From the sequence record PZ026127.1: a DNA stretch of 64,000 nt; one strand, written 5' to 3'. The notes beneath the pieces were generated by a model, which was not told the origin of the DNA, did no database searches, and was given only the letters and a program-made list of their open reading frames with translations. The number at the start of each line of letters is the position of its first letter. Within the stretch, counting starts at the first letter, position 1. The position numbers were made by a program, and so were the translations under genes. This DNA is from a phage. Positions 3,419-44,500 of the stretch are shown here, one piece after another.

Positions 3419-4945
3419 TTATTCTACTTTAATAATAAAAAGAACGGACATTGTCCATGGACGTGTTTCGTTGGCAATAAGACCTTCACTATTCAATGTG
3501 GTATGTCCATCACGGTTCCAAGGATCGGTGGTCTCAAAACCATCGTTGGTATAATAACTACGGTTATCCCAGTCAAGGCCTTTACGAGTACCAACATATC
3601 CGGAGTTAGCGGTGTTACCGAAGGCACCCGCATTATCATGTTCACCAAAACCACCAGCATGTTTATGATAACGTAATGCTTGGGCTTGAACGGAAGATTG
3701 CGGGAAAGAACCAACACCATTACCTAAACGGGCTTTACCTTTACCGTCTTCTCCTCGGTTACCGGCAATATGCGGGTTAACTTCGCCTTCAGAATATCCA
3801 CCGACCGTGTTAGCGCCACGAGGATATAATCCACGGAAATCTGGAATAGCACCCCACCATCCCCAACGCCCACCAACAGCATTTAAATATGCACCACCAG
3901 TGTAAGTCCCACCTACACAAGCACGCCATTTACCAGGTATATTACCTTCATTGCCACCCCACATGCAAATAGTACCCACCGGAACGCTATCTGATAATTG
4001 GTCATGGGTAACAACATCAACACCATTACGACGTAATGCTCCATTAACGTTTAAAGTACCCCATATTTCGCCGCCTGAAGTAGAAATAACGTTAGCATTA
4101 TAAGCCAGCGCCGTATTACCATCGCCTTGGCCTACAGTAGTAGATAAACGAACCAACCCAATACGTCCGGTATTACCTGTACGAGCTAACAAAGAAGCAG
4201 GTGTAACTGCGGTGGTATGGTCGGTACCATTAGATACCATATCCCAACCAGCGAGTTTAATAATACCACTTCTGGCTTCGGTGGAAGTTAATGTGGCTAA
4301 TCCTGCTGGAGAAATAGCGATACCTACCGAAAGACTTCCATTACCAACCTCGGCATTGGTCGCTAAACGAACTAAACCTTCATTTGTAGTCGTTGCTGTA
4401 GAATAAACCGGTAACGCTGCCGTCGCTGCACCAATTGCCTGAGATACTTTAAGCGGGGTCATTGCTGTGGTATCATCGGTACCAGCTAATGCGGCAGGTG
4501 TAGTTGAAATCTTGATAACGCCTGTGGCGTTCTCTGTTGATAAACGGTTCTCAAATGTATAATCCATTACCGCTTTCAAAGAGGTTGCTACGATTGCAGC
4601 CTGGGGCTCTGTGCCTGCTATGGCTTCAGCGTTAGTAGCATAACGGGTGATACCTACATAAGTTTCTGTTGCCTGAGTAGGAATATCTAAACGAGCTTTT
4701 AAAGTTGCTGGTGTCACTGCACTATAAGCATCCAGACCATCCATTACTTCTTGTGTGGTTGCAAGACGAATAATACCTTGGGATGTTTCTGTGGCTGAAG
4801 GAACATTACCTGTGACGCCGATTAATGAAATAGTGGCCAATGCTTCTTGAACATTAGTAATATCAGGCGGGAAATTCGACCCGGTAGGGTCGAATGATTT
4901 GAATTCCGATTTATCACTAATGTGTTTTAGTGTGTTTGTTGACAT
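3419..4945 (-). CDS. 12: short tail fibre protein gp12
   Basis: 508 aa (T4 gp12 about 527); repeated ...G(I/L)(I/V)(R/K)LAT... motifs; position between wac and 11. Confidence 0.8.
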   Translation of the reverse strand: MSTNTLKHISDKSEFKSFDPTGSNFPPDITNVQEALATISLIGVTGNVPSATETSQGIIRLATTQEVMDGLDAYSAVTPATLKARLDIPTQATETYVGITRYATNAEAIAGTEPQAAIVATSLKAVMDYTFENRLSTENATGVIKISTTPAALAGTDDTTAMTPLKVSQAIGAATAALPVYSTATTTNEGLVRLATNAEVGNGSLSVGIAISPAGLATLTSTEARSGIIKLAGWDMVSNGTDHTTAVTPASLLARTGNTGRIGLVRLSTTVGQGDGNTALAYNANVISTSGGEIWGTLNVNGALRRNGVDVVTHDQLSDSVPVGTICMWGGNEGNIPGKWRACVGGTYTGGAYLNAVGGRWGWWGAIPDFRGLYPRGANTVGGYSEGEVNPHIAGNRGEDGKGKARLGNGVGSFPQSSVQAQALRYHKHAGGFGEHDNAGAFGNTANSGYVGTRKGLDWDNRSYYTNDGFETTDPWNRDGHTTLNSEGLIANETRPWTMSVLFIIKVE

Positions 4946-7421: not shown

Positions 7422-8281
7422 TATACTGGAACTCCAATAGTTTGGGTTTCTACGACCTTAATTGCAAGCCTCATAGGATTGACAGAAGAAGCGGTCGCGA
7501 TAATATAGTTTGATGTATCGAATTTAAAATCTAGGGAATAAATTTCGTCATCATCTGAAGTTTGCCCACGTTTAATAACAGCGTATTCGGTGGAATAAAT
7601 CTTTTTAGCTTGGTTGTCGATAAACACAAGATATTCTGAAGCTTTGTAAACGGTTTCGTTGGCATTCACTGCCGTAACTAAAAGTTTGACCAATGAATAC
7701 TGGCCGGAATAAACCACCGGAATATCACGAGCGACAGAAGATATATTATATGTCTTATTTAATGGAACTCGTTTATCACCAAACATACTTTCAATTGAAT
7801 AATCCCATACTGCAATGCCGTTTGTATCTGATACACACCATAAAAGAACTCGTGTATAAGGTGTTACGATACGCAAAGTCGAAGTTGAATGGCTTGCAAA
7901 AGTATCCAATATACGGATTTCAAGATAATTAGTGGAAGAAATACTCCCGTTAGAGTTGATAATCTCGATTCCTTCACCGACTGCACCTTTTACAGTGGTT
8001 AATACGATAGAACCGGTAGAAGCATCGATATCCACCAAAGAGCCTAAATCTACTGAGCTTGCTTGGTCCATATCACCAAATTTTTGATAATAACCTGTAG
8101 CGTGTAATTTCTGACCGGTTAATTCACCAGTTAAAGCGGTTTTGCGTTGGTCGCCGAAAGTATTATATATGTTGTTTAAGTCAGTGTTCAGTTTAACACC
8201 GCCATCATAAAGAATGTCGCCGGTGCTGGCATTACCAATTTCACCGACGTCAATTAGTTCTTTACCAGTTTGCTTAATCAT
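7421..8281 (-). CDS. 9: baseplate wedge protein gp9 (long tail fibre socket)
   Basis: 286 aa (T4 gp9 about 288); synteny. Confidence 0.8.
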   Translation of the reverse strand: MIKQTGKELIDVGEIGNASTGDILYDGGVKLNTDLNNIYNTFGDQRKTALTGELTGQKLHATGYYQKFGDMDQASSVDLGSLVDIDASTGSIVLTTVKGAVGEGIEIINSNGSISSTNYLEIRILDTFASHSTSTLRIVTPYTRVLLWCVSDTNGIAVWDYSIESMFGDKRVPLNKTYNISSVARDIPVVYSGQYSLVKLLVTAVNANETVYKASEYLVFIDNQAKKIYSTEYAVIKRGQTSDDDEIYSLDFKFDTSNYIIATASSVNPMRLAIKVVETQTIGVPV

Positions 8282-8307
8282 AGGTATGCCTCATTATTGA
8301 TATACTG

Positions 8308-8315
8308 TATTTATT
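8308..8315 (-). promoter_or_regulatory. late-promoter-like AATAAATA upstream of gene 9
   Basis: minus-strand AATAAATA (7/8 of TATAAATA) in the 61-bp gap between gene 8 stop and gene 9 start. Confidence 0.45.
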
Positions 8316-8316
8316 A

Positions 8317-8339
8317 AACCCGAAAGGGCCTTGCGGCCC
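8317..8339 (-). terminator. hairpin/terminator after gene 8
   Basis: minus-strand GGGCC-GCAA-GGCCC hairpin followed by UUUCGGGUUU. Confidence 0.5.
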
Positions 8340-8342
8340 TTA

Positions 8343-9347
8343 TTAGAATTCGAAGATAATGTTAATTTCTTCTGTTTGGTCCATGGAACGAATAACCGGA
8401 GGACGGTTTTCCATATAAATCATTTCACCTGAATGGCGGGAGAGGTCTATAACATCATAGTACTCTTTTTCGGCTTTAATGATCGGATCGGATGGGTGAG
8501 CTTTAGCTTCTAATGGATTAGAAATTATCGAAAGCTGTCTAAATCCTTTGTTACCAGGAAGACTAAATTCAGGGAAGTAAACTGAATCTAAGAATGCTTT
8601 AAAACGAATGGTATTGCCTTTAATACGATAAATCAATCCATAATCGTCTTGCTGCCAAGTAAGATTATTCTCGTATCCCCAACGTTCAGGGTCTTCGGCA
8701 ATTTCTTCTGGCCATGGTACTACAATATATTCATTAGTGCAACGGTTAATACTTACATCAGGTGGAATCTCATACAAATATTCCCAGAGATACCCATCAC
8801 CCGTATCAACCATACCTTCCGTATCACCTTGACCTGCTGGAGCTTTAACCGACTGTACATTTGAGGTCCATTTACCACCAAGTTTAATACACTCAGTTTT
8901 ATTATCAAGGGACAAAATAGAACATGTACCTGATTCTGGGATATCTACACAACGATAAACCATCCACCCGGCACCGACATCAGTACGGTTTTGCGGCTGG
9001 CTGTTCGCCACTACAATTTCACCAATCTGGAAAGTAAACGGATTAGGATAAGAGGTATCGCCCCAGTCTTTGCGCGGGACAACACAATCCAACATGCTCT
9101 TATAAACCTTAACGCATCCCATCATGTTTGTCCAGACGTCTTCTACGCCTTCAGAATCATCTACAGGATACGGCGGGGCAAAACCTGGGTCGTTTTCGTT
9201 ATCGGCCCATGGTCGGGCCCTTCCGAAAGATACATACATGGTGTTCTGGTCTTCACCATCACCTATTGTTCTGTAAAAGTTGTACATTTTTTCCGTTCTA
9301 AATTTTGAAGTAACAATAGAACGATAAACTACTGTAGAATTAATCAT
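8343..9347 (-). CDS. 8: baseplate wedge protein gp8
   Basis: 334 aa (T4 gp8 334 aa); overlaps gp7 stop by 8 nt; synteny. Confidence 0.8.
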   Translation of the reverse strand: MINSTVVYRSIVTSKFRTEKMYNFYRTIGDGEDQNTMYVSFGRARPWADNENDPGFAPPYPVDDSEGVEDVWTNMMGCVKVYKSMLDCVVPRKDWGDTSYPNPFTFQIGEIVVANSQPQNRTDVGAGWMVYRCVDIPESGTCSILSLDNKTECIKLGGKWTSNVQSVKAPAGQGDTEGMVDTGDGYLWEYLYEIPPDVSINRCTNEYIVVPWPEEIAEDPERWGYENNLTWQQDDYGLIYRIKGNTIRFKAFLDSVYFPEFSLPGNKGFRQLSIISNPLEAKAHPSDPIIKAEKEYYDVIDLSRHSGEMIYMENRPPVIRSMDQTEEINIIFEF

Positions 9348-12300
9348 TAATTTTTACCTGAGTTGGAACTTTAGGGTCTCTAGGATTTCCAATATCGTCT
9401 TTAAGACGCTTATCAACCAGTGCACGCCAATTGGCAAAGGTCACAGCACTTTGGTCAAACAATGGACTATGCTTTTTAATACGTTCGTGTGGTAATTGAC
9501 CTTGGAATACAGAGAAATCATTTTCCGCATCATAATCTGCAGGGATATCAAACGGTTCTCCTGCTTTAGGTCCAACGTTATAAACCGGAAGCCCTGTTCT
9601 AGGGTCTCGTTCTATATTACCATCAAAACCTATTACAGCAACTCTATCATACCATTCAGATGGCAAACCTGAGTCCCATTTGTAGTTCTTAAGGATATTA
9701 ATAATAGTTTCTGTATGTTTTAGCGTTAAACCTACGTTAACGAACATAGAAAGCAAAGTTATACCTACAAAGCCGAAACCTACTGGATGAACAAATCTCA
9801 AAACATCGTTGCGATAACGAGAAGTAGGGAGATTAGACTTAATGGTCATCACATAATAAGAACGGTTACGGTTGATATAGTCGATATTGTTACTCAAAAG
9901 CTCTTTACCACGTACGCCCTGAACAATCATACCCTTGAACGAAGTGCGTTCAGATTTAATCTCTTGTCCGACTATAAAACGGCCTAAAAGATTGTGAATG
10001 GTTAAACGCCATTGCAGTTTACCATCTTTGTAATTTCGTTCTATATAAGTAACATTACTACGACCTGTAGGAGTATAAATCGTTTGGCCTACGATATCTT
10101 CACTGATATTATCAGATTCTACGATGATATCATATTCGATAGAGTTCTTGGACTCGATATCAATTTCTACATCTTCATTGTAAAGCAATTTAAACAGGAA
10201 TTTATATGAAGCTTCGGTACCTTTTGTAGACCAAAAATCGGTTTGGCGCGCCTGGAAAAAACGAACTACTTCGTCGCGTTTTTCTTTCGACAAATAGATA
10301 TTACGCTTATAGATTTCCGACCACAAATATTCCCATGAATCTTCTTCACGTGGGTATTGGTTACGAATAAGATTCAACAAATTATTATAGTGTGTACCTG
10401 AGCCATCACTAATAAATTGGAGATAGTATTCACAGAATTTTTCAAAGTTGCTATCTTGAAGCAAATAACTATCTGGAATCATTTTAACCAGTAAAGGCTG
10501 GAGGTCCGGGTCTTGCTCACCAACTTCCTCTTTAGGTTTCCACGGGATTTCATGTTCTTGGTTTTGCAATTCAGCCGTAAACATAATTTCTTTAGGCTTC
10601 CAAATAACACGGACTTCATCGCGTACACGATAGTCGAATTCAAAATATCCAACCAATTCACCTGTAGATTTGTGAATCATCATTCCGGAAGAATATTTCT
10701 TAAAGCCGTTGAACTCTATATTAGGAGATGTGACTTTACAAAAACCTTTATTCCAAATCTCATGAACAATACGTTCAGGTGAAGAACCACTGTTCAGGTC
10801 GATAATTTTCTGGTATAAAGCATCATTATAAACAACCATCGCATGGTCGCTAGTAGTAATCCACGAACGGGTTCCATCGCGTCGAGACCAACTAAAGAAT
10901 GGTTCGGCATAATAAGCCATACGCCCAGGTTTAAATTCTTTGAAATCGGATTTAGAGTTAGACCTAAAACTCATCATCAAATAATGTTTATCGTGAATCC
11001 ATTGTTCATCTTTAACATATTTAACGGCGGAGGTGACAATTTCAGGGTATTCCAAAGGAAGCTCAGAATCAACCTCTACTTCATATCTAAAGTTGCTTGA
11101 ACTGAAAAATAATTCCTCTCCATCAGTAGACATGCTGGTATATCCATGCTCTATACGACGACGTTCTTCTTCAGTGTTTCCAAATACACGGGTCCATGTA
11201 TCAGTTGAAGTGTCTAACCAATAAACACCTTTGGATTCAGAATCAACCACATTGGATTCGACCGTAGGGTCCATTTTTTCTTCTTTAACTTCACCTGTAA
11301 TTAAAGCAAATGTATGGCCTTGGATAGAATCTAATTTATAACAAACAGCTTTAGGGTTCCCTGTGATAGTCGAATATCCGCTTTCAAATATCTTCTCTCC
11401 ATAAGTCGGAGAACTAGGGTCGGTGTCTATAGGGGCCTCAGATGTTTTTGCTTTATAAACTCTGTCTCTACCTGCAACATAAATGAAATCATCAGAAGCG
11501 CATATAGCTTCAGCAATAGTGGAAATAGGCAAAGGAAGTTTTGCATATGACCCAAATATCTCGATTTCAAATGGAAGGTCGATATCACTACCTATTTTAG
11601 CAAATGTTATATCTTGGGAGCTAAAACGGACATCATCAGCAGACCAACGAATATCACTTGATTTACGTCCGTAAAATATTTGGTCATAACCTAGAACATA
11701 CGTAGTAGTTTCAGTTTGGTAATGTGCCGTACGTGAAACAGGGTTACCTACTCGGTCATTAAACAAACGGATATAATGCCAGTTCTGCCCTTTATCATTA
11801 GAAACCTTAGCGGTACTTTGGAATCTTTCTAAAAGGTAAAGTACACCACCAAGTTCCATTAAAATAGAACGTTTAGGGTCTTTACAAACCGCTTGGATGC
11901 TTCCTTGGATTTCATGGAAACGGTCGGCTTTTAAAACATAATTTGATATAGATGACAAATGCGAATACGCTGGCGTAAAGTTAAAATCTTCACTCATCAA
12001 AGAAGCCATAATGGCGTCAGTATTAAAGTTCACATAATTCTGATTATTTTTTGTGAATTTTTCTTCAATAAATTTATTAGACAACGCGAATTCGCGCATA
12101 TGCTCAAATGTATATGCGTTGGTAGAGAAAGTTTCAAATTCTTCAGTGTAAACCCATTCAGACTGCTCAAACCCCTGGGCGGCCACCGCAACTCGCATTT
12201 TATAAAATGAATTAGGAGAAATGAATGCCTCTTCAAACCATTCGTTATTAGGGGTGTAACCTAAATTTCTCCAAAATAATCTATCGTCGGGAATTTCTAC

Positions 12301-12435
12301 ACCCGCATCCTTCGTTTGGGCCAGTTCTACGAAATAATAGAAGTTGGCGCCTACGTCATCCCAAAGAATGCTCACATGGTTAGCCGAGAGTTTATCAATT
12401 CTCAGACTAGTAACATAAGGCGCTTGTACAGACAT
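9340..12435 (-). CDS. 7: baseplate wedge protein gp7
   Basis: 1031 aa (T4 gp7 about 1032); synteny 6-7-8. Confidence 0.8.
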   Translation of the reverse strand: MSVQAPYVTSLRIDKLSANHVSILWDDVGANFYYFVELAQTKDAGVEIPDDRLFWRNLGYTPNNEWFEEAFISPNSFYKMRVAVAAQGFEQSEWVYTEEFETFSTNAYTFEHMREFALSNKFIEEKFTKNNQNYVNFNTDAIMASLMSEDFNFTPAYSHLSSISNYVLKADRFHEIQGSIQAVCKDPKRSILMELGGVLYLLERFQSTAKVSNDKGQNWHYIRLFNDRVGNPVSRTAHYQTETTTYVLGYDQIFYGRKSSDIRWSADDVRFSSQDITFAKIGSDIDLPFEIEIFGSYAKLPLPISTIAEAICASDDFIYVAGRDRVYKAKTSEAPIDTDPSSPTYGEKIFESGYSTITGNPKAVCYKLDSIQGHTFALITGEVKEEKMDPTVESNVVDSESKGVYWLDTSTDTWTRVFGNTEEERRRIEHGYTSMSTDGEELFFSSSNFRYEVEVDSELPLEYPEIVTSAVKYVKDEQWIHDKHYLMMSFRSNSKSDFKEFKPGRMAYYAEPFFSWSRRDGTRSWITTSDHAMVVYNDALYQKIIDLNSGSSPERIVHEIWNKGFCKVTSPNIEFNGFKKYSSGMMIHKSTGELVGYFEFDYRVRDEVRVIWKPKEIMFTAELQNQEHEIPWKPKEEVGEQDPDLQPLLVKMIPDSYLLQDSNFEKFCEYYLQFISDGSGTHYNNLLNLIRNQYPREEDSWEYLWSEIYKRNIYLSKEKRDEVVRFFQARQTDFWSTKGTEASYKFLFKLLYNEDVEIDIESKNSIEYDIIVESDNISEDIVGQTIYTPTGRSNVTYIERNYKDGKLQWRLTIHNLLGRFIVGQEIKSERTSFKGMIVQGVRGKELLSNNIDYINRNRSYYVMTIKSNLPTSRYRNDVLRFVHPVGFGFVGITLLSMFVNVGLTLKHTETIINILKNYKWDSGLPSEWYDRVAVIGFDGNIERDPRTGLPVYNVGPKAGEPFDIPADYDAENDFSVFQGQLPHERIKKHSPLFDQSAVTFANWRALVDKRLKDDIGNPRDPKVPTQVKIND

Positions 12436-12462
12436 TAAATCTCCTTAAACCTCCGAAGAGGC

Positions 12463-14421
12463 TTATATTGTAATTGGTTCCAACTCTATAGTTGTGTACT
12501 GAGGACGAAGGTCATCTTCAAATACGATTAAAGAACCGTCTTTGGTAAAGATGTTGTCTTGGTCTGGCCCTGCATAAAGTTCAATAGACTGGACTTCAAA
12601 ACGGTCGGAAGTAAGGCCTATTGCGGCAATATCCCAGAAAATAAAATCTGAGTAATAATCAATTTCGCCAATAACATAGTAGACTGATTGGTCTGCAGGC
12701 GCTGCCATTTTATCAAAGTCATCTCCAGTGTAAGGTTGGATGTATTGGTTTTCAATTACATCGCCAGGTCGGAAAGGACCTATAACCATTTTACCATCGC
12801 CTCGTTCGTCTTTATCTGTGGCAACAATACGTACGTTGTAAGATTTAACAACATCCGATACGTTTGTTGGGACGAACTCAAATTCACTAGAAGTTACAGA
12901 ACGGTTGGTGTATTGATTATAGTATTTAATACCCGCTTCAGGTGTTTTGAAGAAGTTTAATACCTCGCGAACCATTGTTACCGTAGCCGAAGAGCCAAGG
13001 ATACTGTGGTCTGCATTATCAATATAAGTCAACATTTTAGACTTGGCAAATCCATGGTTGAATATTTCAACTTCGTTAATATAATAACGGTCTATTTGAG
13101 AAAGGATTTGAGCCGTTAACCATTGTTCGGATTCCTGTAATTTGTTCAGTGCATATGAAACCTTAATTTTATGCTTCAAGAACAAGTAGTCAGGAGAAAT
13201 AACCGAAGGGGTAATAGGTGCCAAGTTAAATTCTGAAAGATAATTTTGGATATCTTCGCGTTGAACCGCAGTCAAATACAATCCTGATTTAGGTTTAATG
13301 GTAACAAAGGCGTAACCCGGTTTATTTGGGTCTGTAAAGGTTTGTACTGCTTGTACAATAGAACCAAATCGCTCCGAAACGAATGTATCGTAATCTGTAC
13401 CAGTTACAGCACGCATCTGGGCTTCACGTTTAACTACGGCCAATTCACGAATACGTTCAATATCTTCAGGGTCACCACCACCATCAGCACCTACATAATC
13501 CGGGTTTTCATCGTAGTTTTCTGTAATTTTTTCAACTGTAATATACGCCAAAGAATCCGCATAACTAAAGTCCACCGCCCCGTTAGCAACTTCACCGTCT
13601 GTACGAAGGTATTCTATAACAATGGTGGCATCTTTAACAGGTTTTAAACCACCAATATAATTAGCTTCTAATACCCCACCTGCAACTGATTTTTCAGCAA
13701 CACCTTCACCAAAGAAGAATTCAGTATTACCATCTACGGTTTCACGCATATAGTAAATTGTTGATGTACTACCAGCATGAACCATGGATTTATTAGTCCA
13801 GTTAGTCCATTCTGCGCCATCGACATAAAGTTTAACTTCCTGTCTATCAATATCCGGGTCACGAATAAGAATAGGAGTTTTAGGGTCATACTTAAGTTCA
13901 GTACGGATAATACGACCTTGTGCTAAAGATACGATAGGAAGATATTGGTTATTAACATCACGTACGGCAATAACGTTTTCCGTGGTAACAAAAGCATACG
14001 GGTCTGCTGAAGTATCACGGGCATAGGCCAAGAATTTAGTACCACGTGGGATACGAATATTCTTTTCATTCAGGGCTTGGGTACAGGTCAACATGATACT
14101 TGTTTTGGCTGCTGATTTAGAACTTGGCAAATAGCCGTTATCCTGTGCAGCCTGGACGACGGAGGAACGCAAGTTAGCAGTACCGATGAAAGATTCATAT
14201 ACCGCGGTATTAGCAAACTGCTGCATATACAGGGTGTTGTAAGCTAACATGTCAATCAGGATATTCATTCGCGAACCAACGAAATCGTAATCCTTAAATT
14301 CGTCCTGGCTAGAAAGCCAATCGATAATATTCTTTTTAATCTCTTCAAACGTAGCTCCCACAAATACTTTTGGGATAGCGTTAACGGTTCTTGTTAATTG
14401 GTAATTCGTAGGAGTAGCCAT
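12463..14421 (-). CDS. 6: baseplate wedge protein gp6
   Basis: 652 aa (T4 gp6 about 660); synteny. Confidence 0.8.
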   Translation of the reverse strand: MATPTNYQLTRTVNAIPKVFVGATFEEIKKNIIDWLSSQDEFKDYDFVGSRMNILIDMLAYNTLYMQQFANTAVYESFIGTANLRSSVVQAAQDNGYLPSSKSAAKTSIMLTCTQALNEKNIRIPRGTKFLAYARDTSADPYAFVTTENVIAVRDVNNQYLPIVSLAQGRIIRTELKYDPKTPILIRDPDIDRQEVKLYVDGAEWTNWTNKSMVHAGSTSTIYYMRETVDGNTEFFFGEGVAEKSVAGGVLEANYIGGLKPVKDATIVIEYLRTDGEVANGAVDFSYADSLAYITVEKITENYDENPDYVGADGGGDPEDIERIRELAVVKREAQMRAVTGTDYDTFVSERFGSIVQAVQTFTDPNKPGYAFVTIKPKSGLYLTAVQREDIQNYLSEFNLAPITPSVISPDYLFLKHKIKVSYALNKLQESEQWLTAQILSQIDRYYINEVEIFNHGFAKSKMLTYIDNADHSILGSSATVTMVREVLNFFKTPEAGIKYYNQYTNRSVTSSEFEFVPTNVSDVVKSYNVRIVATDKDERGDGKMVIGPFRPGDVIENQYIQPYTGDDFDKMAAPADQSVYYVIGEIDYYSDFIFWDIAAIGLTSDRFEVQSIELYAGPDQDNIFTKDGSLIVFEDDLRPQYTTIELEPITI

Positions 14422-22804: not shown

Positions 22805-22875
22805 GGCCCTGTAGCTGGACGGTCGAGCGAGCGACTCATAATCGCTGGATGGTGGTTCGATTCCACCCAGGGCCA
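22805..22875 (+). tRNA. tRNA-Met (anticodon CAU; could also be a lysidine-modified Ile reader)
   Basis: hand fold: 7-bp acceptor GGCCCTG/CAGGGCC, anticodon stem AGCGA/TCGCT with loop CTCATAA, T-arm GGTGG-TTCGATT-CCACC, discriminator A. Confidence 0.85.
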
Positions 22876-23587: not shown

Positions 23588-23662
23588 GTCCCGCTGGTGT
23601 AATGGATAGCATACGATCCTTCTAAGTTTGCGGTCCTGGTTCGATCCCAGGGCGGGATACCA
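23588..23662 (+). tRNA. tRNA-Arg (probable anticodon UCU), CCA encoded
   Basis: hand fold: acceptor GTCCCGC/GCGGGAT (one G-U), T-arm CCTGG-TTCGATC-CCAGG, anticodon loop CTTCTAA, 3' ACCA; anticodon stem has one mismatch. Confidence 0.7.
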
Positions 23663-41593: not shown

Positions 41594-42052
41594 ATGATTA
41601 TGATTATCAATGCAAACTCTTGGCACGCTAAACTTCATGACCGTTTTTATGACAGTCATTCTCGACCGCACTCTTTATGTGCTTACTTCTGGAAAATGGT
41701 TTGGGCTTGTTTTGCTTGTGCTGTTGTTGCAGGTAGTACGCTTTTTGGATTAACTGTTGCAGGTGTTGGTGTATTAGAGCATTTCTTTGTATTAAGTACC
41801 CCTGTTCTGTTGAGTCTAGGGTTTGTTTTAGGATTGGTTGCAATAGCTCTTATTATTGCGCTATCCATTGGTTTGGCATTCGGTGCGATGAATTTACACG
41901 CATGGTATGATGCCCGTAGAGAAGAAAAGGAACGGCAACGTATTCAAGCTGAGCGTGAAGGCCGAGAAACTAAAGAAAACATCGTTATTCAATACATTAA
42001 AGCTCGTAAATCTAAGGTCTGTCCGGTAATCCACTTCGAGGACAAAGAATGA
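41594..42052 (+). CDS. membrane protein
   Basis: 152 aa; two long hydrophobic helices then basic C-terminal tail. Confidence 0.55.
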   Translation: MIMIINANSWHAKLHDRFYDSHSRPHSLCAYFWKMVWACFACAVVAGSTLFGLTVAGVGVLEHFFVLSTPVLLSLGFVLGLVAIALIIALSIGLAFGAMNLHAWYDARREEKERQRIQAEREGRETKENIVIQYIKARKSKVCPVIHFEDKE

Positions 42053-43059
42053 GAACAGTTATGAAAGGCTACTTCGGTAGCCACCTTTATGGAACAAGTA
42101 CTCCAGAATCTGATGTTGATTTTAAAGAAATCTTTGTTCCACATCCGCGTGATATTCTGTTAGGTACGGCTATGAACCATACCAACCTGAATACGAATAA
42201 CACAGCTTCTAAAAACACTAAAGATGATGTTGACCACGAGCTTTACAGCCTGAAATATTTCTTTAAACTGGCTGCTGATGGCGAAACCGTTGCTCTGGAT
42301 ATGCTCCACACTCCACCTGAAATGGTGGTTAAATCTGATTTACCTGATGTATGGAAATTTATCCAAGACAATCGTTCTCGGTTCTATACGACTAACATGA
42401 AAGCCTATTTAGGGTACGTCCGTAAGCAAGCTTCTAAATATGGTGTTAAGGGTTCTCGACTAGCTGCACTGCGTGGTGTACTGGCTATTGTTAACCAGAT
42501 TCCTGAACAGTGGGTTGACTATCAAGAAGGAATCCCTGATAGACTTCGTCGTACTAAGGTAGAAGATATCAAACACAGACTCCCTGAAAATGAGTTCTGT
42601 GAATGGGTATTCCATAACCATGAGAAAACAGGCCCTCAAACGTTCTATACTGTTCTAGGACGTAAGTACCAAACTACTTTGTCTTTAATCGAGCTCAAGC
42701 AATCTCTGAATAAGCTTGATGCTGAATATGGCGAACGTGCTCGTAAGGCTGAAGCTAATGAAGGTATCGATTGGAAAGCTCTGAGCCATGCTTATCGTGC
42801 CGGTTATCAGTTGAAGGAAATCTATATGACCGGCGATCTCAAATATCCTTTACGTACAGCACCGTTTATCCTTGAAATCAAACAAGGGCTACATGCTTTT
42901 AAAGATGTGCAGGCTGAACTTGAAGCTATTGTAGATGAAGTCGAAACTAATGCTATCTGGGCCGCTAAGAATGGTATGCCTGATAAGGTAGACATGAAAT
43001 TCTGGGACAAGTTCGTTGAAGAGGTGTACCTAGAAAACCATAACTCGTATTATAAATGA
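42049..43059 (+). CDS. pol-beta-superfamily nucleotidyltransferase-like protein
   Basis: 336 aa; N-terminal YFGSHLYGTSTPESDVDF fits the G[GS]x9-13[DE]h[DE] NTase motif with a further acidic VALDMLH about 60 aa later. Confidence 0.5.
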   Translation: MRTVMKGYFGSHLYGTSTPESDVDFKEIFVPHPRDILLGTAMNHTNLNTNNTASKNTKDDVDHELYSLKYFFKLAADGETVALDMLHTPPEMVVKSDLPDVWKFIQDNRSRFYTTNMKAYLGYVRKQASKYGVKGSRLAALRGVLAIVNQIPEQWVDYQEGIPDRLRRTKVEDIKHRLPENEFCEWVFHNHEKTGPQTFYTVLGRKYQTTLSLIELKQSLNKLDAEYGERARKAEANEGIDWKALSHAYRAGYQLKEIYMTGDLKYPLRTAPFILEIKQGLHAFKDVQAELEAIVDEVETNAIWAAKNGMPDKVDMKFWDKFVEEVYLENHNSYYK

Positions 43060-43060
43060 T

Positions 43061-43082
43061 AAAAGGCCTTCGGGCCTTTTTT
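43061..43082 (+). terminator. intrinsic terminator
   Basis: AAGGCC-UUCG-GGCCUU followed by UUUUGGG directly after the NTase-like gene. Confidence 0.8.
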
Positions 43083-43101
43083 GGGTTTAGTGCAAAAAAG
43101 A

Positions 43102-43132
43102 GTTTACACTCTCGTAGAGCATGTTATTATGG
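43102..43132 (+). promoter_or_regulatory. T4-type early promoter cassette
   Basis: GTTTACA 43102, 16-bp spacer, TATTAT 43125; 20 nt after terminator (PeSL-like). Confidence 0.65.
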
Positions 43133-43167
43133 ACCTATCAAATCTACTGAGTGAAATGGAGAATATA

Positions 43168-44148
43168 ATGTTAACTATCAAAATCAACAAAGGTGTCTAT
43201 CGCGGTAATGAAATCTCTGGTACGTTCATGAGTTCAGGTAAAACCTGGTTCCCTAATAAAATTCATGAATCTGAAGCTCACCTCGGTGATGGTAAGGTAT
43301 TCGTACAGATTGATGGTGTTGAACGTGGTGTATGGGTATTCAAATCTGATATCGAAACCGAAGGTGCTGAAGCTCCTGTAGTGGTTACCGAATCTTCTGA
43401 AGAAATGAAACACCGCATCAACAAACGTTTTAAAGTAATGAACATGATGACTAATGGAATCATCGATGGTAAAATTCGTTCCCTTATCATCTCTGGTGCC
43501 GCAGGTATTGGTAAAACATATTCTTTGGATAAAGCATTACAGAATGCCCACGAAAATGAAACTATCGAATATAAATCAATCAACGGAAAGATTAGTGGAA
43601 TCGGTCTTTACGAGCAGCTTTGGAATAACCGCGGCCCTAATAGTGTTCTTCTTATTGATGATGTTGATGTATTCTCTGATATGGATATCCTGAACCTGTT
43701 AAAAGCAGCATTGGATACCGGTGAAAAACGTAAGGTGTGCTGGAGCACTTCAAGTTCTTACCTCGATGATAAAAATATCGATAAAGAATTCGAATACGAA
43801 GGCACCATCGTGTTCATCACCAACGTTGATATCGACCGTGAATTAGAGCGCGGAACTAAACTTGCTCCACACCTCCAGGCTTTAGTATCTCGTTCAGTTT
43901 ACTTAGACCTCGGAGTTCACTCTAACGAAGAGATTATGGTCCGTGTTGAAGACGTTATCCTGTCCACTGATATGATGCAAAACCGTGGTCTGACTGATGC
44001 CGAGACTTATCAAGCACTGTCCTGGATGAAGGCTAATGTATCTCGTCTTCGTAACGTATCATTACGTACAGCTCTTTATCTGGCGGACTTCATTGCCACC
44101 GATAAAAATGACTGGAGCGAAATCGCTGAAGTTACACTTCTGAAATAA
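43168..44148 (+). CDS. AAA+ ATPase
   Basis: 326 aa from ATG 43168; Walker A GAAGIGKTYSL, Walker B VLLIDDVDVF, sensor-1-like IVFITN. Confidence 0.65.
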   Translation: MLTIKINKGVYRGNEISGTFMSSGKTWFPNKIHESEAHLGDGKVFVQIDGVERGVWVFKSDIETEGAEAPVVVTESSEEMKHRINKRFKVMNMMTNGIIDGKIRSLIISGAAGIGKTYSLDKALQNAHENETIEYKSINGKISGIGLYEQLWNNRGPNSVLLIDDVDVFSDMDILNLLKAALDTGEKRKVCWSTSSSYLDDKNIDKEFEYEGTIVFITNVDIDRELERGTKLAPHLQALVSRSVYLDLGVHSNEEIMVRVEDVILSTDMMQNRGLTDAETYQALSWMKANVSRLRNVSLRTALYLADFIATDKNDWSEIAEVTLLK

Positions 44149-44158
44149 AGGTGAAATT

Positions 44159-44500
44159 ATGTTCGAACAATTTATTTACAATCTTTATAACGCAGGTCAG
44201 ACTTTTTCCAAAGCTATGAAACAGTCTGTTGAAGACTATATTAATGAATGTAGTACTAAGTTTTCTGAGAAATTCTATAAAAATCCGTGTAGTGGAGGAG
44301 ACTTCAGGAGACTGCGCTTGGCCGTTAACACCCAGGCCTTAATAAATCTAGACCGCAAGCAGGTAAAGTTGGCAGGCGACTTCCGAGATGAACTCTGCGC
44401 CATCAGGAATGAATATCGCATTCGTATTGAACACCAACGGAAAGAGAACACTCAATCCGCATGGTTTAGTGGTCAAGCCGGTGAAAAAAGTTTCTATTAG
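44159..44500 (+). CDS. hypothetical protein
   Basis: 113 aa ORF. Confidence 0.5.
   Translation: MFEQFIYNLYNAGQTFSKAMKQSVEDYINECSTKFSEKFYKNPCSGGDFRRLRLAVNTQALINLDRKQVKLAGDFRDELCAIRNEYRIRIEHQRKENTQSAWFSGQAGEKSFY

Follow-up and report, generated by a model that had tools for sequence, protein, structure and literature searches.

The question raised by this locus is whether two neighbouring phage genes, one encoding a putative nucleotidyltransferase (NTase) and the other an ATPase of the AAA+ type, work together as one system. Both genes lie on the forward strand, between positions 42049 and 44148 of a stretch of 64,000 nucleotides of sequence record PZ026127.1, and this whole stretch is what we call the window. 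The initial annotation, made from the letters alone, described an open reading frame (ORF) of 336 amino acids (aa) followed by another of 326 aa, related them, as an NTase-ATPase pair, to nucleotide-signalling or nucleic-acid-modifying systems and took neither product to be assignable from T4.

Regarding their identity, the region is 92-97% identical to the JS98-group T-even phages (Straboviridae, Tevenvirinae, Dhakavirus), and judged by its sequence the window is that of a JS98-like T-even phage. By the same comparison T4 NrdC.11 and T4 NrdC.10 are the orthologs of the 336-aa and the 326-aa ORF, respectively. In JS98 the genes follow the usual T4 order (tk, rI, mobD.x, nrdC.11, nrdC.10, on toward nrdC), and its RefSeq record labels nrdC.11 'nucleotidyltransferase' and nrdC.10 'similar to bacteriophage T4 NrdC.10 conserved hypothetical protein'. 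Therefore both are conserved T4-like genes, already catalogued in the T4 family and not new, although their functions in T4 are only predicted. Actually, the AAA match of nrdC.10 and the COG3541-NTase match of nrdC.11 were published in 2006, when nrdC.10 was found in just three of six T4-like genomes compared (PMC1524935), and the T4 stretch from nrdC.11 to mobD.3 can be deleted (PMC9825161).

We found that a conserved two-gene system of NTase and AAA+ ATPase is not supported, and that the adjacency of nrdC.11 and nrdC.10 is an accident of T-even gene order. We consider it probable that these are two independent early T-even genes which are neighbours by chance, NrdC.11 being an RNA-end NTase of the RlaP family and NrdC.10 a stand-alone AAA+ ATPase.

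Co-occurrence of the two genes

Three sets of loci were compared: 78 viral loci anchored on the NTase (flanks of up to ±10 kb), 80 viral loci anchored on the ATPase, and 80 bacterial and archaeal loci (L166-L245) with NrdC.11-type genes of 32-52% identity. The ATPase was present in 37 of the NTase-anchored viral loci and absent from 41. Starting from the ATPase, the NTase was found in 9 loci, 7 of them of T-even type, and was absent from 71. Near the cellular NrdC.11-type genes there was no NrdC.10-like gene in any of the 80 loci. All the 37 joint loci were of T-even type, and in them the NTase gene always came first, the ATPase gene following on the same strand after 7 bp to 2.3 kb.

Each gene is also found alone in particular phages. 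The NTase occurs without the ATPase in an RB43-type locus and, within ±8 kb, in Sinorhizobium phage phiN3. The ATPase occurs alone in 121Q and PAC2, and near that of Vibrio phage BX-1 no NTase is annotated. Three VR-type Dhakavirus relatives (L008, L010 and L041), with an NTase 95-96% identical, lack nrdC.10 alone and keep the order MobD.1, membrane protein, NrdC.11, DUF7203-like gene, NrdC.8 and NrdC.6 intact. On two Aeromonas-type contigs both genes are present, separated by about 111 kb in one and about 39 kb in the other. Homologs of NrdC.11 were found by tblastn in 1,551 phage records and those of NrdC.10 in 1,312, and the counts differ by host genus: 286 NTase against 149 ATPase records for Klebsiella, 59 against 121 for Vibrio. 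Thus, the functional pair did not survive the co-occurrence check. As to the claim that the genes are adjacent but separately driven, the adjacency is real and a hairpin and a promoter-like site do lie between the genes; nevertheless, this adjacency is confined to the T-even lineage.

We also considered the small DUF7203 gene (44159-44500, forward strand), which starts 10 nt past nrdC.10, as a partner of the ATPase. A first tblastn had hinted at a joint loss of both genes in the VR-type phages, but a sensitive profile found a divergent DUF7203 there. Both genes were present in 32 loci, the ATPase without DUF7203 in 5 and DUF7203 without the ATPase in 6. As each of them occurs alone, this idea was dropped.

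Family of the nucleotidyltransferase NrdC.11

The nrdC.11 gene occupies 42049-43059 (forward strand) and its product begins with MRTVMKGYFGSHLYGTSTPESDVDF. The Pfam family RlaP (PF10127, 'RNA repair pathway DNA polymerase beta family') matched residues 8-135 with 41.3 bits against a gathering cutoff of 23 (E = 1.9e-10) and was the only Pfam family above its cutoff. The same family was matched individually by 60 of 61 diverse full-length relatives, and the close homologs were all annotated with PF10127 beforehand. Furthermore, the protein is a full-length member of phrog_388 (7e-133) and is 97.6% identical to NrdC.11 of JS98. A profile search of 1.84 billion representatives returned 3,911 clusters, and among the best 150 of these nearly all were full-length, of about 310-350 aa.

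In an alignment of the 61 relatives, which share 33-52% identity with the window protein, G10, D22 and D24 were invariant, and S11, D60, D62 and D84 were conserved in at least 90%. The G-S, ten residues, D-x-D signature of the DNA polymerase beta (pol-beta) superfamily was therefore read correctly at the outset; its codons, G10-S11 through D22-x-D24, lie at 42076-42120 (forward strand), and those of the conserved acidic residues D62 and D84 at 42232-42234 and 42298-42300. A second conserved block comprises K130-Y-G-x-K-G-x-R137 together with R230, D241, H247 and R250. Comparison with canonical RlaP paralogs by hhalign (91% probability, E = 1e-6, ending at query column 137) placed G10-S11 on ESGS, D22-x-D24 on SDYDVRF and D62 on the LDxxGWD strand. 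The placement of the window NTase as a divergent RlaP-family member of the pol-beta nucleotidyltransferases is thus well supported by its sequence.

Structure prediction was less informative. The alignment behind the AlphaFold2 model was shallow (28 sequences, all at least 68% identical). The model had a predicted local distance difference test (pLDDT) score below 50 for residues 1-57, and its C-terminal half is helical with a beta insert. A Foldseek search of this model, whose core is poorly modelled, against the PDB gave matches at noise level only, and neither a single-sequence search nor two profiles found a relative in the PDB.

Many GenBank phage records label the homologs of nrdC.10 and nrdC.11 as 'thioredoxin', and this label has been carried into UniRef names. 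It appears to be an annotation error whose source is the nrdC prefix of the gene names.

RNA-repair neighbourhoods and a predicted role of NrdC.11

The chemistry of the family is now known from bacteria. The name RlaP goes back to Burroughs and Aravind (2016; cited in PMC12776372 and PMC7824862) and refers to an association with RNA ligases. In a bioRxiv preprint of December 2025 (PMC12776372), two Pseudomonas enzymes, from P. fluorescens and P. aeruginosa, added one or two nucleoside monophosphates to the 3'-OH of RNA; DNA and protein were not substrates, Mn2+ was preferred and the broken end of a mimic of cleaved tRNA was favoured. They also partially rescued the aminoacylation of a tRNA lacking one anticodon-loop nucleotide, and the authors proposed that RlaP is an antidote to nucleases like RloC, which cut and then trim tRNA. 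The same preprint explicitly places T4 NrdC.11 in PF10127, in its cluster 5, with the label 'unknown function'.

The recurrent neighbours of the NrdC.11-type genes in the 80 cellular loci were canonical full-length RlaP, Pnkp, Hen1 and RtcB, each confirmed with Pfam. Canonical RlaP (253 bits) was near the NrdC.11-type gene in 21 loci, and in 18 of these 21 it followed immediately on the same strand, the gap being about zero. Pnkp, with its kinase, phosphatase and ligase domains, was found in 8 loci, in several of them abutting the NTase gene directly, Hen1 in 6 and RtcB in 7. Of the 47 loci flanked on each side by 4 kb or more, 12 have Pnkp, Hen1 or RtcB and 16 have the tandem RlaP. This tandem occurrence of two RlaP subtypes in bacteria suggests non-redundant roles or a heteromer. 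One tandem, in L240, consists of an NrdC.11-type gene at 8001-8945 and a canonical RlaP gene at 8976-9767.

Among the phages, the NrdC.11 homolog of phiN3 (L002, 7995-8969) lies between an RNA ligase gene (3646-4710) and an Rnl1-like ligase gene (11869-13101), and in one further locus (L084) RtcB is close to the NTase gene. Genes for a nudix hydrolase and a homing endonuclease also stand alongside the phiN3 homolog. Adjacency to an RNA ligase was rejected as a phage-wide rule, because it is limited to these two cases and did not recur in the 34 analysed phage loci without the ATPase. The neighbours in those 34 loci, which we take to be tk, the tk.4 macro domain, NadR-like and NAMPT-like genes, are presumably ordinary genes of this T4 region.

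Taking the family and the cellular neighbourhoods together, NrdC.11 probably has a role in tRNA repair in this phage. An RNA substrate and an anti-nuclease function are likely, and we infer them from the observed family membership and conservation of the catalytic residues. The substrate would be the 5' half of a host tRNA cut by a base-removing anticodon nuclease, for example of the RloC type. NrdC.11, with its predicted activity as an RNA-end NTase, would restore the lost nucleotide, and then the PseT polynucleotide kinase/phosphatase and RNA ligase 1, whose genes lie in other parts of the genome, could reseal the full-length tRNA.

The AAA+ ATPase NrdC.10

The nrdC.10 gene had been listed as an ORF starting with TTG at 43081. 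We best read its start as the ATG at 43168, because GGAG stands ahead of it and the alignment to phrog_1250 ('unknown function') begins precisely at this Met; the 326-aa product is then encoded at 43168-44148 (forward strand). Walker A (GAAGIGKT, residues 110-117, 43495-43518) conforms to GxxGxGKT and has G110, G113, G115, K116 and T117 invariant across homologs. Walker B (VLLIDD, residues 159-165, 43642-43662) has D164 and D165 invariant, and so are the sensor-1 N219 (43822-43824) and R242 of the ALVSRS box before strand 5 (43891-43893), all on the forward strand. In the AlphaFold model (pLDDT 88.8), residues 1-65 form a beta domain of five strands, which a linker joins to a long helix (77-99). 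An alpha/beta core (105 to about 250) and a helical lid (253-324) follow, and the positions of Walker B, N219 and R242 agree with the strands of the model. By motifs and confident fold prediction alike, the AAA+ fold predicted for NrdC.10 is certain, as had been claimed. There is indeed an additional N-terminal domain; nevertheless, its size is about 65 aa (43168-43362, forward strand) and not about 110 aa, since a linker and the N-terminal helix of the AAA+ module follow it and the first core strand comes at about residue 105.

All the P-loop and AAA matches of NrdC.10 in Pfam and NCBIfam were below cutoff, and the isolated beta domain had no match in Pfam. The lid gave a weak Pfam match to HTH_37 (E = 0.006). 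The alignment of jumbo-phage homologs to NrdC.10 begins at about residue 75-83, past the beta domain. Thus, NrdC.10 is an orphan AAA+ protein, whose exact clade within the superfamily is less certain than its fold; a MoxR type (NorQ/CbbQ) and a clamp-loader or RarA-like type were both considered.

A lead to its function comes from 71 divergent environmental viral loci (L094-L164, IMG/VR), in which the pairwise identity of the ATPase has a median of 54% and a minimum of 31%, and whose neighbours were named through PHROGs. Here the NrdC.10-type gene lies within a recombination/replication cluster on one strand, with a single-stranded DNA-binding protein of the gp32 type some 4.8 kb upstream, UvsX some 3.5 kb and UvsY some 2.2 kb upstream, and a UvsW-type helicase some 2.2 kb downstream. 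The helicase was found in 49 of the 71 loci and in 36 of the 49 with at least 3.5 kb of downstream sequence. One example of the cluster is L108 (1631-2602 and 2968-4473). These uncultured T4-like phages have no close cultured relative. Because of these neighbours, our best guess is that NrdC.10 may be a loader or remodeller that is driven by ATP and serves DNA replication or recombination, and not a partner of the NTase. We offer this as a tentative hypothesis, somewhat unlikely to be right as it stands: this neighbourhood was not seen in the T-even phages, and its synteny could be inheritance within one broad clade.

The two leads can be combined. NrdC.10 might be an unrecognised accessory of recombination-dependent replication or repair, perhaps a loader or remodeller acting with UvsW and UvsX/UvsY/gp32, which moved to the nrdC-tk region in T-even phages, while NrdC.11 would be a second, non-redundant RNA-end NTase that closes a gap in T4 tRNA repair against nucleotide-excising nucleases. 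Non-redundancy with canonical RlaP would account for the frequent tandem arrangement in bacteria. Taken as a whole, however, this combination is unlikely.

A different view of NrdC.10 is that it is a chaperone-like AAA+ of the MoxR/CbbQ/NorQ type, which remodels a protein complex such as a nucleotide-metabolism enzyme, and not a replication or recombination factor. Its fold, Walker motifs and sensor-1 Asn would suit that group; nevertheless, they suit the initiator and loader clades as well, and no curated family includes it, so that we find this view doubtful.

Signals and features around the genes

Upstream of nrdC.11 lies a membrane-protein gene (phrog_944, 41594-42052, forward strand), whose stop codon overlaps the nrdC.11 start in an ATGA at 42049-42052. 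This overlap couples nrdC.11 to its upstream neighbour and not to the ATPase gene. Just after the nrdC.11 stop, an intrinsic-terminator-like hairpin is found at 43061-43080 (forward strand; AAAAGGCC-uucg-GGCCUUUU), in which a stem of 8 bp closes a UUCG loop and a run of U follows. The hairpin has a free energy of -13.4 kcal/mol (z = -2.97 relative to shuffled sequence) and is kept in JS98-type relatives. Ahead of nrdC.10 there is a match to a sigma-70 or T4-early-like promoter (43103-43130, forward strand; TTTACA-16-TATTAT with an upstream TG, 10 of 12 positions). Therefore, the terminator and early promoter described initially are present as a hairpin and a promoter-like site, both of which are consensus matches only. 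The ATPase gene has a promoter-like site of its own, and its gains and losses do not follow those of the NTase gene.

The spacer between the two genes measures 108 bp here (43060-43167) and roughly 420 bp in JS98 (L001, 6055-6473), and its length ranges between 7 bp and 2.3 kb among other T-even phages. Some of these (T6, RB3) have homing or intron-like endonuclease genes annotated at or beside the spacer, which looks like an insertion hot spot.

About 19 kb upstream, two phage tRNA genes are found on the forward strand, tRNA-Met(CAT) at 22805-22875 and tRNA-Arg(TCT) at 23588-23662. Their position fits a T4-type tRNA region.

Alternative explanations for the pair

Several observations weigh against the reading of two independent genes, one of them for an RNA-end NTase. 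The local synteny is stable, the NTase preceding the ATPase on the same strand in 37 of 37 T-even-type joint loci. In the promoter scan the number of sites was about equal in real and shuffled sequence, and the promoter ahead of nrdC.10 is a consensus match only. Homology to canonical RlaP is demonstrable for the N-terminal 130 residues or so only, and no C-terminal homology was detected either by Pfam, whose match covers profile positions 25-143 of 249, or by hhalign, which ends at column 137. Finally, there was no recurrent RNA-repair neighbour in the T-even-type and related phage loci, and in JS98 pseT, rnlA and the Stp-like PrrC activator gene lie 85-90 kb from nrdC.11.

The stable synteny is what would be expected if both proteins formed a nucleic-acid-modifying module in T-even phages, in which the AAA+ protein recognises or unfolds a damaged RNA or ribonucleoprotein (a tRNA or the ribosome) and passes it to the NTase. 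However, such a module is lost outside the T-even lineage and sometimes inside it, the VR-type Dhakavirus relatives lacking nrdC.10 only. The NTase stands alone in RB43-type phages and in many Klebsiella and Aeromonas phages, the ATPase stands alone in jumbo phages, Vibrio phages and the 71 environmental loci, and the ATPase is missing from all 80 cellular NTase loci. In addition, the hairpin and the promoter-like site part the two genes, with homing-endonuclease insertions between them in some phages. We therefore regard the module as very improbable.

The remaining explanation, that the NTase makes a second messenger or belongs to a toxin-antitoxin pair (CD-NTase/cGAS-like, OAS-like, MNT/MntA or AbiEii/MenT-like) and has no part in RNA repair, has in its favour the generic G-S ... 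D-x-D pol-beta signature, which NrdC.11 has in common with all those families, and weak matches below threshold (NTP_transf_2, E = 0.079; MntA, E = 0.066), yet it can be set aside as the least credible of all, since RlaP alone is above cutoff (in 60 of 61 relatives), the NF047752 MntA model reached 13.1 bits against a cutoff of 60, and the cellular neighbours are RNA ligases and end-healing enzymes instead of effectors, HEPN domains or toxins. In the PADLOC library, whose models cover both established and candidate systems of anti-phage defence, no model matched the window NTase at E <= 1, and neither there nor in Pfam did it match a CD-NTase or cGAS-DncV-like (CBASS) or an AbiEii model. As to an MNT/MntA-HepT type, the adjoining genes match the phrog_944 membrane protein and the phrog_1250 AAA+ ATPase, although no HEPN-specific search was made. 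An assignment of the locus to a defence system was also rejected for the ATPase, whose GajB, SspF and PtuA matches are at the level of the P-loop, with E of 0.002 or weaker. Thus, the cGAS/CD-NTase, OAS, MNT or AbiEii type implied initially gives way to the RlaP family (PMC12776372).

Significance and comparison with known systems

T4 is the founding model for RNA repair. The membership of NrdC.11 in a newly characterised family, with a chemistry known from bacterial RlaP (PMC12776372), leads to the question of whether T-even phages thereby evade RloC-type nucleases, which defeat repair by kinase and ligase. The case for a tRNA-repair role is stronger because bacterial genes of the subfamily adjoin those for Pnkp/Hen1, RtcB and a second RlaP. 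As the ATPase is not the partner of the NTase, a false 'system' annotation is avoided, and for NrdC.10 the attention shifts to DNA recombination and replication.

Regarding the AAA+ superfamily, NrdC.10 shares the fold, Walker A, Walker B and the sensor-1 Asn with the MCM, MoxR (NorQ, CbbQ) and sigma-54 activator group and with the Cdc6/Orc/DnaA/RFC clades, as well as a conserved Arg before strand 5 and a helical lid. Unlike the known clades, it belongs to no curated family and has a unique N-terminal beta domain, and its sequence identity to any solved structure is 10-18%.

With bacterial RlaP (PMC12776372), NrdC.11 has in common the Pfam family and the G-S, D-x-D and third Asp in register. 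The Pseudomonas enzymes are encoded in RtcB-RtcA operons, and in a similar way the cellular NrdC.11-type genes adjoin Pnkp, Hen1 and RtcB. However, only about 130 N-terminal residues can be aligned. NrdC.11 exceeds the bacterial protein in length by about 70 aa, differs from it in the C-terminal region and has a beta-rich insert, and it forms a sequence cluster of its own (cluster 5, PMC12776372), which in many bacteria is found in tandem with canonical RlaP. Furthermore, the T-even nrdC.11 genes have no adjacent ligase gene, and the activity of the NrdC.11 subtype is a predicted one.

Concerning the T4 pathway, in which PseT and RNA ligase 1 counter the PrrC anticodon nuclease by repairing tRNA (Amitsur et al. 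1987, cited in PMC12776372), the participation of NrdC.11 is our proposal, for a gene that is 85-90 kb away and dispensable on laboratory hosts. The same phage lineage nevertheless has pseT, rnlA and the Stp-like PrrC activator, and RlaP has been proposed as the missing step of this pathway when the nuclease also removes a nucleotide (PMC12776372).

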